A stretch of DNA of 64,000 nucleotides from Octopus vulgaris (Eukaryota), in the NCBI GenBank assembly GCA_951406725.2, contig OX597823.1, forward strand, positions 47,864,001-47,928,000, read 5' to 3'. Position numbers and translations under genes: made by a program. Shown here piece after piece: positions 1,935 through 18,931 of the stretch; positions within the stretch are counted from its first letter, which is position 1, and the number at the start of each line of letters is the position of its first letter. The notes beneath the pieces are model-generated. The model worked only from the letters and a program-made list of their open reading frames with translations. It did no database searches and had not been told where the DNA came from.

Positions 1935-2165
1935 GCCCAGGAGTGGCTGTGTGGTAAGTAGCTTGCTTACCAACCACTCAGTTCCGGGTTCAGTCCCACT
2001 GCGTGGAACCTAGGGCAAGTGTCTTCTACTATAGCCTCGGGCTGACCAAAACCTTGTGAGTGGATTTGGTAGTCGAAAAATAAGTCTTGGGGTCGATTTG
2101 CTCGACTAAAAGGCGGTGCTCCAGCATGGCCGCAGTCAAACGACTGAAACAAATAAAAGAAAGAA
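1935..2165 (+). mobile_element. SINE family A, internally deleted
   Basis: A box TGGCTGTGTGG, B box GGTTCAGTCC, same 3' tail; contains the empty target GTAAGTAGCTTGCTTACC. Confidence 0.85.
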
Positions 2166-4652: not shown

Positions 4653-5354
4653 TCACATATTTTACAATCATGCTGATGTTGGAAGTTTGTAAGTGTTAGC
4701 ATGTTTTTGTGTCCGTGTGTTCGTGAGCGCGACAGAGCAAATCAGGTGAAAGTGATTGACGTAGAAAAGTTACCCGATGGTGGGGGCAGCGAATATAGTA
4801 GGCTTCTTGTGTTGTTTGTATCGACATAGCAACAGATAGCAGCAGATGGCTTAAGGTAGTTCTTAGAAGAACTAGAACCCAAGACAGATAATTTATTTAC
4901 CGTTTATGAGGTACACGGAGTGTAAGAGTTCCATATCAAGATGTTGCGTCTCGTAGTTGAGATTAATTGAATCACTTGTTGTGTTTTATCTTTCTCTTGA
5001 TATGAATATACTTCCAGATATATTAACTGTAGCCGTTTTTCCCGTGGTGAGATTTTCACCTAACCGCTAGAGTTGAATCTATAGTTGTCTTGTGTACAAA
5101 TTAAACCTTCGTAGATAGAGACGATGGTTGGCGATGAGTTGTGTCTGTCGCTTGCTTTTTGTTGCGTCTTCATTATATATTCTGCTTGGTTATTTTTCTC
5201 TAGTTATAGATATCCTGTAACCGTCCCTTTCGTGGTGATATTTTCACACTAACAGTATGAGATGAATCTGTAACATCTTGTGTACAAGCTAAATCTTCGT
5301 GGATAGTTATGCTTGGTGATCGCCTGCCTTTCGAACCGGAACATGGTTGGTATG

Positions 5355-7932: not shown

Positions 7933-8170
7933 GTATGGGAGTTTAGTTCAGAGGTGATCCAAACGATAAGGTACGCTAAGTAAGTTCTATAAAGGATTAC
8001 TGGGGCTCCAAGGTTATAGCCGGCACGGTAGTTATGGAGTCATTGCAGCAGTTATATAACTGTTATACTGGATAGTAAACATTAAGGCAAGGCAAACATC
8101 TCAAGTCGTATATAATGATATCGTATACGACTTGAGATGTTTGCCTTGCCTTAATGTTTACTGCCCTGTT
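7933..8170. repeat. Dispersed repeat with terminal palindrome (8073-8162)
   Basis: Other copies at 52328-52580 and 63198-63275. Confidence 0.7.
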
Positions 8171-10243: not shown

Positions 10244-10640
10244 GAGTGGCTGTGTGGCAAGTAGCTTGCTTACGAACCCCATTGTTCCGGGTTCAGTCCC
10301 ACTGCGTGGCACCTCGGGCAAGTGCCTTCTACTATAGCCTCGGGCCGACCAAAGCCTTGTGAGTGGATTTGGTAGACGGAAACTGAAAGAAGCCCGTCGT
10401 ATATAGGTATATATATATGTGTGTGTGTGTGTTTGTATGTCTGTGTTTGTTTTCCCCCAACATCGCTTGACAACCGATGCTGGTGTGTTTACGTCCCCGT
10501 AACTTGGCGGTTCGGTAAAAGACACCGATAGAATAAGTACTAGGCTTACAAAGAATAAGTCCTGGGGTCGATTTGCTCGACCAAAGGCGGGGCTCCAGCA
10601 TGGCAGCAGTCAAATGACTGAAACAAGTAAAAGAGTAAAA
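10244..10640 (+). mobile_element. SINE family A, near full length
   Basis: A and B boxes, core and 3' tail present. Confidence 0.9.
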
Positions 10641-11342: not shown

Positions 11343-11698
11343 TCTTTTCAGGTATTTGACTGCGGCCATACAGGAGCACCGCCTTTGGTCGAGTAAATCA
11401 ACGCCAGGATTTATTCTTTGTAAGCCTAGTGCTTATTCTATCGGTCTCTTATGCCGAACCGCTAAGTTACGGGGACGTAAACACACCAGCATCGGTTGTC
11501 AAGCGATGTTGGGGGGACAAACACAGACACAGACTCACACATATACACGACGGGCTTCTTTCAGTTTCCGTCTACCAAATCCACTTACAAGGCTTTGGTC
11601 GGGCCGAGTATAGCAGAAGACACTTGCCCAAGGTGCCACGCAGTGGGACTGAACCTGGAACCATGTGGTTGGTGAGCAAGCTACTTACCACGCAGCCA
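11343..11698 (-). mobile_element. SINE family A
   Basis: Reverse complement of family A. Confidence 0.9.
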
Positions 11699-11877: not shown

Positions 11878-11915
11878 GGCGCAGGAGTGGCTGTGTGGTA
11901 AGTAGCTTGCTAACC
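11878..11915 (+). mobile_element. SINE family A head interrupted at the target site
   Basis: GGCGCAGGAGTGGCTGTGTGGTAAGTAGCTTGCTAACC followed by unrelated sequence. Confidence 0.9.
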
Positions 11916-13472
11916 TCTGACGTGTTCGGACGTGTTTTTTGGCAGCTGCCAGCTGTCACGTCTCAGGACGTGAAATATTGAATTTTTGAGACTCGACTAA
12001 AGGTAGGCATTTTGTATTTTTGCGGGCTAAGTGAATTTTATTGCTTGCATTTAATGTTTTGTAGCATTTAATATTTTTTAGCGGGTAATAGACTCTACTT
12101 TGCTCCGGAGATGTATTTTTTCTGCCTGTTGTCGAGTTTAAAGTCTCACTTTGCAGTGAGAATTGTGTTTTTTTGAGGAGGCATAGCCCCACCTCAAAAA
12201 TTAACGTGTGTAATTGCCTTTGTCTTCGGATATACCAACGGAGTACCAAGAACATTAACACAAGTGGATTACTAGTGGCCTGGAATACCTTTTTGGCCGG
12301 GAAAAAATAAGAAAAAATAATAATAACAATTCCTTATAATAACAATAATAACAAGAGTCTGATTGGGAGGGGTCAAAGGCTACTTTGACTCTATGGACCC
12401 AGTCAGCCAAGAGTCTGGTTTTGCCGGACTTTTTGAGGATGGCCGGGTCCAAGTATCCGGTGATGCTTCAGGGACGACCCCCAAGTGTCACCTGTGCCTG
12501 GAGCCTGGACATATCAAGAGGAAGTGTCCCGGAGGCCGTGGTGCTGCCCCGGAGCATGAAAAGGAAAAGGTACCCGCCGCTCTCTCATTGGAGGGGGAGA
12601 CGGTGGAAGTCGTGGAGGAAGTAGCCTCCACGAAAAGAAAAAAACAGGTGAGCAACAATGGTTGCTCACCAAAGAACGTACAGACGGAGGAGGAGGATAG
12701 CGACCCCCTGCGTCTGCCGAAGGAGCCCCCCGGGCTAGCAGCCTCAAAAAAAAAGAGGAAAAAGAGAATAAGAGGTCGGACGACTGACGTTTCTGTGTCG
12801 CCGACGGAGCCGCGGGTGGGATGTGTGCCACCCGCGGACAGGGTTTCGTCAGTGGGAAATGTGCCACTGACGGATCAGTGTGAGGTCCCTTCCTGTGAAG
12901 AGGAGTTGTTTCTCCTCCTTTACCACAAGGGAGGGAAGGTGGAAAAGTTTTTGAATGGCTTGGGTGACCGAGAACGCAAGGACACGGTCGGCTCAAGGAG
13001 TCCGTTATGGCCTCCGCGGGTAGCTGCGGAGGTAGTAACGGAAAACATTTTGTCAAGGGTCGCAGAGATCTTTGAGAGGAAACATTTTACTTTTCTCTTT
13101 GCAGGCCTCGACTTGTCGTCGCAGAGTTGTCTGCAGGCGGCAAGACAATTTGCTTCGGGGACCTGACAGGGAGAATTTTTGTGAAATCATGTACTGCCCT
13201 TGTGGCAAAAGAAATGAAAAAAAAAGGAACTTTGTAAGAGGTTTTAGTGCCTCCTTCGAGTAAGAGGTTTGCAACCTCATGTCGATTTACTGAAACTAAA
13301 GAAAATTGAACTTATTGAAAAAAAGAACAATGTCTTAGAGAAGCGGAAGTCGGTGGGCGCTTTCGTCTTCTCCCATCATCATCTTCACTTCATCACCATC
13401 ATTCATTAATGTCTATGTCCAGCCCGTAGCTACTATCTGTGTACTGCCCTTGTGGCAAATTAAATGAAATAA
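11916..13472 (+). mobile_element. Tx1/L1-like non-autonomous non-LTR element, copy 1 (ORF1 C-terminal part only)
   Basis: Flanked by AGTAGCTTGCTAACC at 11901-11915 and 13473-13487; zinc knuckle; AATAAA-like 3' end. Confidence 0.75.
12363..13166 (+). pseudogene. ORF1p (gag-like) fragment with CCHC zinc knuckle
   Basis: PKCHLCLEPGHIKRKC; N-terminus deleted; frameshift near 12470-12480; basic KKKRKKR tract. Confidence 0.75.
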
Positions 13473-13487
13473 AGTAGCTTGCTAACC

Positions 13488-15485
13488 TCTGACGTGTTTT
13501 TTTTTGGCGGAGAGTTCTTGCTGCTTGATGTCACGTCTTTCGTCGTAAAATATTGAATTTTGAGGCTCGACTACAGGTAGGCGTTTGTTGTATTTTTTTG
13601 AGGGCTTAGTGGAGTTTGTTGCTCTGTATTTAATATTTTTTGGTGAGTAATAGACTCCACTCTACTCCAGACATTTTCCTGCCTGTGGTCGAGCGTAAAG
13701 ACTCACTTTGCAGTGAGAATTGTGTTTTTGAGGAGGCGTAGTCCCTCCGCAAAAATTAATTTGTTTGCTTCTGAAATTGTCTTTGTGTTTTCCACTGGAT
13801 TTACCACGGAGTACCAAGGTAGAAAGGACTAATTGTGCTGCGGTTGGATTTATTTTACCATTGTGAGAATTTGGCGGGGGGGCGTATTCGTCTTCGATAA
13901 ATTGAATGTATATTTTTCTCACCTAATTATGAGAACTGTATTGTGCCTTGAAGAACTTTAAGAATTGTGAGAACTGCTATATAGGGGAGTGTTTTGCCTC
14001 CGAAGTTTGAACAATCTTTACCAATTTTATACCAATTTTTGTGGGAGTTGTGTTCCAGTTGCGGTGTTCCGGGTTCAATTTAGGCCGGGAGTACCGAATG
14101 GCCAGAAGATTTTTTGCTGTGTTATTGACTTTCTTTTGAACTTTATTTGATTTTCTCCTTTTTGTTTGTGACTTTCTGTTGATTTCTTCCCTTCTGTTGA
14201 TGTCTTCCCTTCTGTTGTGCTTCCTCCTTTTTTGTATCTTTCTCACTTTTTTAAAAAACCTATCGTGAACTTTATTTGGACTTTGAACTTTTTTCACATG
14301 GCAAAGAAAAATGAAGCCACTGCTTTGGAGTGGAAGGTTGTCCCACCCAAGCAGTGGATTAAAGATCTTGAGAAGAGGACGGTGGTACTACGAACCTATT
14401 CTAGGTCGCGTGGAGCCATCGCCCTCTTCGACAAGAGCATAATAGAAAAAGAGTTGGCAAACCACCTGCCAACTATAAAGTTTATTTCTCGGGGGACCAA
14501 ATTTGCAAAGGTGTGGTTTCTGTTTGGTACCCCCGAGGAAGCTAGCAGATTTGCTAGCGAGCCCCTTGAGGGTGAGGAAGTTTTGTTCCTCCCCTCGTAT
14601 TGTGGAAGAAAAATAAAAAGAGCCTGGGTGTGCAGGCTGCCCCCGGGCACGGAGGCGGGATGGATCGAGGAGACCATCCAACGAGGCCTGGGAGATAGTG
14701 GGCCCAGGCTTTTGAGTGTAAAAATTACTCTCGCGGTCGACTGGGAGAGGTCAAAGGCAACTTTGACCCTGTGGACCCCGGTGGCCGTGGGAGAGATGAT
14801 ATTCCCAGACTTCCTGAGAATGGCCGAGCACAGGTGCCCGGTGATACTCGAGGGACGCCCCCCCCAAGTGTCACCTGTGCCTGGACATATCAAAAGGAAC
14901 TGTCCCGGGGGCCGTGGTGGTGCCCCGGAGCATGGAAGGGAAAAGGTGCCCGCCGCCCCCTCATTGGAGGGGGAGACGGTGGAAGTCGTGGAGGAGGTTG
15001 CCTCCACGAAAAGAAAGAGACAGGTGAGCAACAATGGTTGCTCACCAAAGAATACTCAGGCGGCGGAGGGGGATAGTGACCCCCCCATGTCTGCCGACGG
15101 AGCCCCCTGGGCTAGCAGCCTCTAAAAAAGGAGGAAAAAGAGAAATAGAGTTCGGGCGGCTGATGTCCCTGGGTCGCCGACGGAGCCGCAGGTGGGATGT
15201 GTGCCACCTGCGGACAGGGCCCCGTCAGTGGGAAGTGTGCCACTAACGGAGCAGTATGACGTCCCTTCCCGTGAAGAGGAGATGTTTGTCCTCCTTTATC
15301 ACGAGGGAGGGACGGTTAGTAAATTTCTGGACGGCTTGGGCGACCGAGGACTTGTGTGCTCGTTCTACTCAAGCTGTCCGAATTGGCCTCAGCAGGTGGC
15401 TGCGGAAGCGGTTACCATTAATGTCTACGTCCAGCCCGCAAAGCTACATCTGTGTAATGCCCCTGTGACAAATTAGATAAAATAA
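13488..15485 (+). mobile_element. Tx1/L1-like non-autonomous element, copy 2 (5'UTR, ORF1, 3' tail)
   Basis: 5' end homologous to copy 1 (TCTGACGTG...); shared 3' tail CATTAATGTCTA..CCAGCCCG..AAATAAA; followed by target AGTAGCTTGCTTACC 15486-15500. Confidence 0.8.
14298..15416 (+). pseudogene. ORF1p, near full length, with indels at the zinc knuckle and later frameshifts
   Basis: MAKKNEATALEWKVVPPKQWIKDLEKRTVVLRTY...FLRMAEHRCPVILEGRPP..PGHIKRNC; homologous to copy 1. Confidence 0.75.
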
Positions 15486-15500
15486 AGTAGCTTGCTTACC

Positions 15501-15870
15501 TGTCTAGTGGTTAGACGTTTTTGTTTACGGTGAGTCGAACATTGAATTGTTTTTCTGTTGGAATTATTTATTGCTGAACATTGTGGAACTGTTAAAACTG
15601 TTAACTTTTGTGCTTTTTCCCGGTGACGGGAAAAAGAAATAATTTGTGTAAAACTATTTTTCTGTTGTGAACTGTTGGAATTTTTTAAATTGTTAAAGCT
15701 GTTGTCGGCTGTATATTTTGTGCGGTGGCAACGGAAAATGTCGAATTACAGAAAGAAAAGCTCTCAGAGCTTTTTGGAAGAATGAAAAAGGAGGTGGGTA
15801 ATATAAAAATATCACCCTCACCTTGTGTAGAAAAATTTAAAAGAAGGACAGTTGTTTTTAAAACATACTT
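15501..15870 (+). mobile_element. Third, diverged element 5' end (5'UTR and ORF1 start), truncated
   Basis: From GTG 15725 reads ATENVELQKEKLSELFGRMKKEVGNIKISPSPCVEKFKRRTVVFKTY, matching KRTVVLRTY in copy 2. Confidence 0.6.
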
Positions 15871-16204
15871 TTATATTGTCGTCGGAAGCATCTGATAGCG
15901 TGTCTGTGATTAGGTCTCTGACGCTGAGCGAAAGAATCCCACTCAATACGATGTGCAATCTCTGTCGAGCCGATTGAATGATAGTGGGGCAGAGTGATGT
16001 GACTCATCTTCGGCGGGAAAAACATAGCACACGTCTAGAAGAAGGGGAAAAGAGCTGGACGTGACCAAAAACCAGACAATACACATCCAAGAAAATTCCA
16101 CACGTGGTCGTGAGCAAACAGAATAACGTCCTCCAACGAGAAAAAATGTCAGACAAGAATAAAAGAAAATGCTAAGTCGTACCTGACAAAGGAAAAAAAA
16201 TTGT

Positions 16205-16992
16205 CGGCATAGTTTCGGTTGTAGTAGCACAGATTTCCGTCGATTTCCGTAAAAAACATTTATTTTTTTACATAAGTAATGAGAGCGAAAGAGACTAAGA
16301 GGAAGCGATTTTACGACGAGAAGGTTTCACTTTGAAGTCGGCCTGTGTGTGTTTGATGGGGTGTGGGAGACAGACAGTATGTTGTGTAAGTGAAGTGCTT
16401 CTGTTAGTGTGTGCGAAGAGACAGACATACATATACACATACACCGAGTACATACATACATACATACACACACACACATACATAGATACATACACACACA
16501 CACATACATACATACATACACACACACATACTTACACACACACACACATACATACATACACACACACACATACATGCAGACATACATATACACATACACC
16601 GAGTAAAAAATTACGATGAATCGGCCATACATACATACATACACACACACATACTTACACACACACATACATAGATACATGCATACATACATATACACAT
16701 ACATGCATACATACATATACACATACACCGAGTAAAAAATCAGTTATCTCTCTCTTTCACACATTACTCTCTCTGTCTCTTCGCACACACTAACAGAAGC
16801 ACTTCACTTACACAACATACTGTCTGTCTCCCACACCCCATCAAACACACACAGGCCGATTTCAAAGTGAAACCTTCTCGTCATAAAATCGCTTCCTCTT
16901 AGTCTCTTTCGCTCTCATTACTTATGTAAAAAAATAAAAGTTTTTTACGGAAATCGACGGAAATCTGCGCTACGACATGCGAAACTTCGCCA
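16205..16992. repeat. About 220-bp inverted repeat pair enclosing CA/CATA microsatellite (fold-back or MITE-like)
   Basis: 16205-16424 is a near-perfect reverse complement of 16773-16992. Confidence 0.85.
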
Positions 16993-18702: not shown

Positions 18703-18931
18703 GGCGGCGAGCTGGCAGAAACGTTAGCACGCCGGGCGAAATGCTTAGCAGTATTTCGTCTGTCGTTACGTTCTGAGTTCAAATTCCATCGAGGTCGACT
18801 TTGCCTTTCATCCTTTCGGGGTCGATAAATAAAGTACCAGTTTCGCACTGGGGTTCATGTAATCGACTTAATCCCTTTGTCTGTCCTTGTTTGTCCCCTC
18901 TATATTTAGCCCCTTGTGGGCAATAAAGAAA
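18703..18931 (+). mobile_element. SINE family C with 13-bp TSD
   Basis: GGCGGCGAGCTGGCAGAA...GAGTTCAAATTCC; TATCCAATGGTAT on both sides. Confidence 0.9.

Follow-up and report, generated by a model that had tools for sequence, protein, structure and literature searches.

Sequence-specific retrotransposons of the L1/Tx1 type, such as Dewa and Mutsu, reside in multicopy small-RNA-type or repeat targets. Keno, Kibi and Koshi are further elements of this type with multicopy targets, and members of the Tx1 clade are also found inside other transposons, including Tx1 of Xenopus in Tx1D, the crocodilian Tx1-Mar in Mariner-N4_AMi, Tx1-9_AMi in Harbinger, and Tx1-8_Crp and Tx1-4_AMi in long terminal repeat (LTR) elements, with SINEU as passengers (Kojima, 2015, PMC4494074). 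Non-autonomous derivatives of long interspersed elements (LINEs) that keep only open reading frame 1 (ORF1) are represented by the mammalian, L1-derived HAL1 (half-L1; PMC5753468). Regarding contacts between element RNA and target, the RNA of R2 starts in the upstream 28S sequence, the annealing of which was proposed to give uniform 5' junctions (Eickbush, 2013, PMC3774820), and in SART1Bm and R1Bm, site-specific LINEs with an apurinic/apyrimidinic endonuclease (APE), a short target-like RNA was proposed to anneal to the nicked target (PMC7265360). Among octopus SINEs (short interspersed elements), OK, OR1 and OR2 have been named. Here, we describe a tandem array of non-LTR retroelements at positions 11,878-15,870 of a 64-kb stretch of the Octopus vulgaris genome (contig OX597823.1; hereafter the window, with position 1 as its first letter), in which successive elements occupy the same site in a putatively tRNA-derived SINE.

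As in the transposon-targeting Tx1 elements, an APE-reverse transcriptase (RT) LINE here has a preferred site in a multicopy transposon, and non-autonomous passengers share this target, often in tandem. In contrast, the octopus target is a putatively tRNA-derived SINE hit at one exact base, the passengers are 2-kb protein-coding elements instead of SINEs headed by small nuclear RNA, the upstream repeat appears to be partly carried by the element, and the tail is antisense to the site. Whereas Keno, Kibi, Koshi, Dewa and Mutsu target host genes or microsatellites, this target is a mobile element with >60,000 copies, the site of which changes between subfamilies. The passengers resemble HAL1 in being ORF1-only LINE derivatives, but their ORF1 is of the RRM/CCHC type without Transposase_22, they are site-specific, and they form one long-lived lineage that is 30% identical to its partner's ORF1. 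Tx1 targeting of transposons with passengers, ORF1-only HAL1 and RNA-target annealing in SART1/R1 are already known. In the accessible literature, which included two octopus repeat papers (PMC13282606, PMC8967140) and had Repbase and supplements outside its scope, we found neither a SINE-targeting LINE, nor a site-specific half-LINE clade, nor a tail antisense to its target; these three features are apparently new, with a prior description being possible. SINEs ordinarily exploit LINEs; here the roles would be reversed, with a SINE that expands and is apparently harmless serving as the landing pad of a LINE and a long-lived half-LINE clade.

We interpret the array as independent non-LTR insertions stacked at one base of a high-copy SINE head, in which the ORF1-only copies likely owe their movement to the ORF2 enzyme of an autonomous relative of the L1/Tx1 type that shares the site and the tail end (probability about 0.8). 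An earlier note on the window had suggested site-specific insertion into such a SINE by several lineages, and searches of the octopus's own 2.8-Gb genome, from which all genome-wide counts derive, confirm this proposal: exact junctions between an AATAAA tail and the site number 1,096, against 0 for the reversed control. Empty sites amount to 29,995 for the A variant and 30,313 for the T variant (~60,300), while a third SINE form with GAAG is empty at 4,764 sites and gives 329 junction matches, not all of which are genuine. The resulting occupancy of roughly 2% (A/T forms) and 6% (GAAG form) is a rough figure, as the search patterns were of unequal length. Using a tail-only query from which the site was excluded, 28 of 29 other copies ended at the site (best 30 of 513 candidates, including the window). 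The 15-mer that the note took for the insertion site is indeed joined to SINE halves: in a sample of junctions on C1, 86 of 87 of which were read in a 10-kb context, what comes after the site is the remaining SINE half in 70 cases, a known next element in 13 and other sequence in 3 (n=86), and one junction (L179) was not an element tail. Furthermore, 5'-truncated copies, ranging in length from ~25 bases to several kb, stop at one and the same base of separate SINE copies whose flanks are unrelated, and therefore represent independent insertions. The elements show a fixed 3' end, variable 5' truncation and, in truncated copies, target duplications of 6-16 bases, as expected of non-LTR retrotransposons that use target-primed reverse transcription. 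Insertion likely disables the SINE copy that is hit, presumably by promoter loss.

In some of the truncated copies (L164, L171, L180, L199 and L139), the stretch of tail inserted at the site measures only 25-65 bases, with an inversion in one of them, showing how little aborted events copy. Two other loci (L170, L192) are composites of a short SINE head or body and an element tail, bounded by the site, and could be chimeric passengers, and intact SINE copies are present inside ORF1-only elements (L007, L008, L138), i.e., nesting occurs in both directions.

The partner with an APE-RT ORF2 that had been predicted from the window exists at the same site and with the same tail end. This element, L121, is arranged as SINE head, site, 5.45-kb element, tail, site and SINE body, and contains an open ORF1 and an open ORF2 of 1,133 aa with Exo_endo_phos, RVT_1 and zf-RVT domains (PF03372, PF00078 and PF13966, all above cut-off), corresponding to the APE, RT and C-terminal zinc finger of the L1/Tx1 group. 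The best solved relative of its ORF2 is human L1 ORF2p (E 8e-67), with R2 at E 6e-20, and the closest named protein is from Argonauta hians (61%). A metagenome scan yielded relatives that are all distant (best segments 23-40%). Unlike in typical L1, the AATAAA of its tail is joined to the site without poly(A). The L121 ORF1 has a zf-CCHC match at cut-off, and together with the predicted fold of an ORF1-only relative this indicates an ORF1 of the RRM + CCHC type, which, as opposed to Transposase_22, has been linked to Tx1 in non-mammalian animals (PMC5203782). No named Tx1 reference was present among the matches of the homologue searches and of a cluster look-up; the autonomous element is Tx1-like and may belong to the Tx1 clade. 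The young family to which it belongs has at least 76 full-length 5' ends behind the site, older ORF2-bearing families also use the site, and autonomous and ORF1-only elements coexist in mixed arrays (L130, L135, L210).

Complete ORF1-only units measure 1.9-2.3 kb between target duplications and encode ORF1 without ORF2 (L136, L141, L147, L181 and others), with open frames of 420-426 aa and many differing 5' ends. Over 193 residues, this ORF1 and the autonomous one are 30% identical; among named proteins, the closest match to ORF1 is from Octopus sinensis (66%). In a quick tree of 44 ORF1-only rows and 8 rows with ORF2 (L177 entered twice), the ORF1-only rows lie on one side of a branch with 100% support, ~2 changes per column from the autonomous ORF1. 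Among 11 ORF1-only copies, the ratio of nonsynonymous to synonymous divergence (dN/dS) is 0.06-0.36 in 51 of 52 computable pairs and 0.53 in one close pair, while dS between subfamilies often exceeds 1. Judging from these substitutions, their ORF1 is under purifying selection, and the long supported branch, the high dS and the low dN/dS together indicate that ORF1-only elements are one old lineage needing its own ORF1, and did not arise by repeated deletion from the present-day LINE. The predicted fold of the relative L136 (predicted local distance difference test score, pLDDT, 91.6) best matches tandem-RRM proteins (E 5e-5), although with low template modelling scores of 0.3-0.4, and profile searches gave no Transposase_22 match in the ORF1 of these elements. 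What the passengers share with the LINE is restricted to the last ~45 bases, which include a 4-bp hairpin (all four pairs formed in 39 of the 48 tails in which the 3' arm could be located) and the AATAAA joined to the site. As site, tail end and hairpin are shared, the ORF1-only copies were likely mobilised in trans by the autonomous ORF2. The 5' ends of the families are often unrelated to each other and rich in GCGCATGCGC, CTTCCGG and TGACGT, which we take to be polymerase II promoter motifs, suggesting repeated promoter replacement.

The structure of the 5' junction modifies the idea that the 15-mer is a target duplication. This holds for the downstream repeat, which follows the local SINE variant, but the upstream repeat is not a pure duplication in the young autonomous family, as the T variant occurs in 0 of its 76 full-length 5' junctions (all A) against 23 of 83 3' junctions (P 6e-8). 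Indeed, the young-family loci with both ends (n=52) comprise 11 with A upstream and T downstream and none with the reverse. This one-sided mismatch makes it likely that, in the young family, the last bases of the upstream repeat arrive with the element RNA. One extra T is present at the 5' join in 28 of 76 young-family junctions, in both sub-lineages and also in other families, where 17 of the 23 sites of this form are element joins; in the young family it is found at 8 of 11 mismatched versus 8 of 41 matched loci (P 0.002). Most 5'-truncated copies show a duplication of just 6-11 bases. On the simplest reading, the RNA would start 6-8 bases inside the site and the end of the complementary DNA (cDNA) would anneal to the target, with which the A, A, T series of sites in the window is consistent. 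The likeness to R2 lies in target sequence at the RNA 5' end that is proposed to anneal to the target; in contrast to R2, with its restriction-like nuclease and hepatitis delta virus-like ribozyme, the stretch carried here is of 6-8 bases and Rfam searches of the 5' end gave no ribozyme match besides simple-repeat noise. The young family, which has ~75 full-length copies, open frames and a naturally varying target, offers a direct test bed for 5' junction formation.

At the other end, element tails contain the motif AGCTAC(TT), which is the reverse complement of the site's beginning and represents an antisense copy of 6-9 bases. Exact antisense matches of at least 7 bases are found at 71 of 120 junctions, compared with 7 and 0 in two controls. 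The motif switches together with the site of the SINE subfamily: GAAGC in the site is accompanied by AGCTTC in the tail, and a table of tail motif against site variant gives 50/0 and 2/16 for ORF1-only and 21/0 and 0/3 for autonomous elements. The GAAG tail form requires 2-3 changes on the ORF1-only tree (a quick tree) and one in the autonomous tail, where the motif has another context and position than in ORF1-only elements. Therefore, tail and site appear to have switched together in at least three lineages, through about three to four probably independent events. The motif could pair with read-through RNA, according to fold prediction, or with the top strand that the nick releases, whereas the RNA of SART1Bm/R1Bm is complementary to the primer (bottom) strand. 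Taken with the 5' junctions, these tails suggest that the ends of the element RNA likely help to pick and rebuild the landing site. The same system could be used to test whether RNA-target pairing contributes to LINE site choice.

A mechanism combining these elements can be proposed. The APE endonuclease would nick the bottom strand at a TT/A step that marks the left edge of the site. Reverse transcription would begin exactly at AATAAA, without poly(A), and would be helped by base pairing of the antisense tail motif, either with the read-through RNA or with the freed top strand, or with each in turn. The top strand would be cut or trimmed 6-16 bases further on, and, as the RNA would start within the upstream repeat, annealing of the cDNA end to the target would rebuild a full site before each full-length copy, letting more elements of any lineage stack there. 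Each passenger would make its own RNA-binding ORF1 protein, which would explain the selection on ORF1.

Several observations weigh against this reading and must be interpreted together with it. Trans mobilisation, nick positions and RNA ends are all read from junctions alone, and beyond the last ~45 bases no DNA common to ORF1-only and autonomous elements is detectable by blastn. Two truncated copies (L139, L180) repeat 15-16 bases, so the top-strand cut may lie 16 bases on and be followed by trimming, and two older families have A upstream in some copies and T in others, so that the evidence for RNA delivery of upstream bases concerns the young family. Regarding the tail, 47 of 147 junctions were unanchored and 8 fell outside the tail-site table; its rows are related and were partly chosen by site, so that P values overstate the case and it is the count of independent events that matters. 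The folding of tail with read-through was no better than that of shuffles (z 0.27, -0.78 and -0.97), two insertions (L365, L379) are mismatched to their antisense motif, and an age proxy gave no order of arrival within arrays.

The choice of the site can be read in more than one way. A tentative and, in our view, rather unlikely possibility is that the RNA itself carries both strands of the site, antisense in the tail and sense in the read-through, and swaps them onto the nicked SINE strands. A one-base change in the tail would then redirect the LINE and its passengers to a new subfamily of the SINE, and the site would be rebuilt by the 5' end of the RNA. If so, the LINE community would track SINE evolution by RNA change and not by protein alone, and a tail motif that steers insertion would represent a small programmable element in an APE-type retrotransposon. 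To a choice encoded wholly in the protein, through the endonuclease, we would give somewhat less than even odds; the motif would then merely close a hairpin with the read-through or be a relic, and the covariation would derive from the succession of elements and SINE subfamilies. The known specificity of Tx1 elements is ascribed mainly to the endonuclease (PMC4494074), the predicted folds do pair the motif with read-through RNA, two mismatched insertions exist, and the elements at GAAG sites are mostly long-branch, older-looking rows. Nevertheless, the same compensating change arose in two unrelated tail contexts and on 2-3 ORF1-only branches, which needs selection on pairing, and a second SINE, whose tail end is similar but lacks the antisense motif, has only 3 of 75 ends at the site of the first, though it perhaps uses another LINE.

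The remaining alternatives concern the origin of the copies. Spread as SINE passengers or by duplication of SINE-element composites, with arrays growing by unequal crossing-over, appears very improbable as a general explanation. It finds support in a seven-unit single-family array on C1, the units of which differ from each other at 0-7.6 positions per kb and from dispersed copies at 6-30, and in near-identical duplicate loci on C13, C28 and C31. In contrast, truncated copies end at the same base of different SINE copies in unrelated flanks, mixed arrays unite lineages up to 70% apart in protein, and downstream sites retain locus-specific SINE mutations. Duplication is thus largely refuted for dispersed copies and mixed arrays, and would be a secondary process in long homogeneous ones; the statement that the copies are no simple tandem duplication stands for the mixed array of the window, whereas long single-family arrays elsewhere look partly locally duplicated. 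As this also applies to the seven-unit array, array length does not equal insertion number. A tRNA gene as the true ancestral target, with the SINE as a look-alike, is somewhat less improbable but still doubtful. Elements that target tRNA genes are known among non-LTR retrotransposons (PMC8869645), and the SINE head, which has no match to the Rfam tRNA model, aligns to tRNA-Lys and tRNA-Ala genes of the same genome (best z 5.7 over shuffles for tRNA-Lys, with the B-box region matching), the site falling just past the D-arm. Nevertheless, the site is present in none of 30 sampled tRNA genes (Lys, Glu, Ala, Thr, Arg and Cys types), no tRNA gene flanks any junction read, and the elements follow SINE subfamily variants. 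Almost no credence can be given to the 15-mer as a terminal repeat encoded at both element ends, LTR-like or of a recombinase type. In the young family, 6-8 bases at the end of the upstream repeat do move along with the element, but the downstream repeat matches whichever variant (A, T or GAAG) the local SINE has, truncated copies lack a full upstream repeat, and ORF2 of L121 is an APE-RT protein without integrase or recombinase domain; the variable downstream repeat and the 5' truncation refute this candidate. Independent stacking at the SINE site remains our preferred interpretation.

Stacking is seen at G000:C1:223.69-223.71 Mb (L130, L131, L201), where seven ORF1-only units and one autonomous element lie in one SINE. 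Two adjoining units of the C1 array are identical in substitutions, pointing to local duplication.

The array of the window runs from a SINE head through site, copy 1, site, copy 2 and site to copy 3 (Table 1). The 15-mer noticed at 11901-11915 and 13473-13487, and as an A/T variant at 15486-15500, was correctly placed, the common stretch being really 16 bases, and each site does follow a SINE head or an AATAAA tail and precede a new 5' end. With up to 2 mismatches allowed, the window contains the 15-mer 6 times where 0.09 matches would be expected, with 3 of them in the array and 3 in the uninterrupted SINE copies whose empty sites had also been pointed out (1957, 10260 and, on the minus strand, 11671). 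Copies 1 and 2, both decayed, share a 5' untranslated region (UTR; 74% identity over 324), the 3' part of ORF1 (82% over 677) and the tail (87% over 86), as had been claimed, but not an intact ORF1 with a knuckle: copy 1 retains the knuckle without the first ~150 codons, and copy 2 retains the N-terminus with the knuckle disrupted. The RRM-like domains of copy 2 are based on the predicted fold of its intact relative L136, and full-length relatives of copy 1 are about 2.0-2.1 kb. Copy 3 was rightly seen as a diverged family, unlike copies 1 and 2 in DNA, but it can be recognised in DNA as a member of an ORF2-bearing family (82-90% identity to L133; ORF2 pieces in 6 of 9 relatives read). Therefore, the array is not purely ORF1-only, contrary to the earlier note. 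Its right side is open: neither an ORF2 nor a tail, a fourth site or the downstream half of the SINE follows copy 3 in the window.

Table 1. Features of the array and empty sites in the window.
Feature	Position	Strand	Basis
SINE head, 5' part, tRNA-like, A-box side, cut off at the site	11878..11899	+	93% to intact SINE heads
Target site copy one, 16 bases, A variant	11900..11915	+	sequence read and motif search
Copy 1, ORF1-only element with internal deletion	11916..13471	+	relatives L183, L136
Copy 1 ORF1 remnant with CCHC knuckle, RRM-like part deleted	12363..13166	+	zf-CCHC E 0.013, below cut-off
Copy 1 tail motif AGCTACT, reverse complement of target-site start	13428..13434	+	sequence; pattern family-wide
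Tail stem, 4 bp with 5-base loop, common to autonomous and ORF1-only elements	13445..13457	+	tail comparison, fold prediction
Target site copy two, A variant, immediately 3' of AATA, without poly(A)	13472..13487	+	sequence read and motif search
Copy 2, ORF1-only element, 2.0 kb, other subfamily than copy 1	13488..15484	+	alignment to relatives
Copy 2 ORF1, two predicted RRM-like domains, knuckle disrupted, premature stop at 15123-15125	14298..15476	+	
Copy 2 tail motif AAGCTAC, antisense to site	15441..15447	+	sequence
Target site copy three, T variant	15485..15500	+	sequence read and motif search
Copy 3, internally deleted 5' fragment of older ORF1+ORF2 family	15501..15869 (end approximate)	+	relatives L133, L210, L211, L212, L215, L216 carry ORF2
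Empty site, uninterrupted SINE copy	1956..1971	+	motif search, blastn
Empty site, uninterrupted SINE copy	10259..10274	+	motif search, blastn
Empty site, uninterrupted SINE copy	11671..11685	-	motif search, blastn

The second abundant SINE family has a 3' end like the autonomous 3' UTR and is present in the window at 18905 (+) and at 5143 and 21571 (minus-strand count), as well as in L007 and L350. It often lies head to tail in its own body, and one of its tail variants is complementary to its own junction sequence, possibly by the same pairing principle. The idea that the target SINE itself carries the LINE tail was ruled out, as blastn shows only a 30-base head in common.

Within copy 1, a second, internal copy of the tail hairpin region (91%) lies at 13190-13223. 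A perfect long hairpin at 8072-8164, with Rfam matches below cut-off, is probably a miniature inverted repeat. Copy 3 is cut off by another dispersed repeat at 15868-16199 (79-84% to several loci), and shortly past the truncated copy, at 16211-16986, there is a foldback element with 215-base arms that are 97% identical, around CA/TA repeats.

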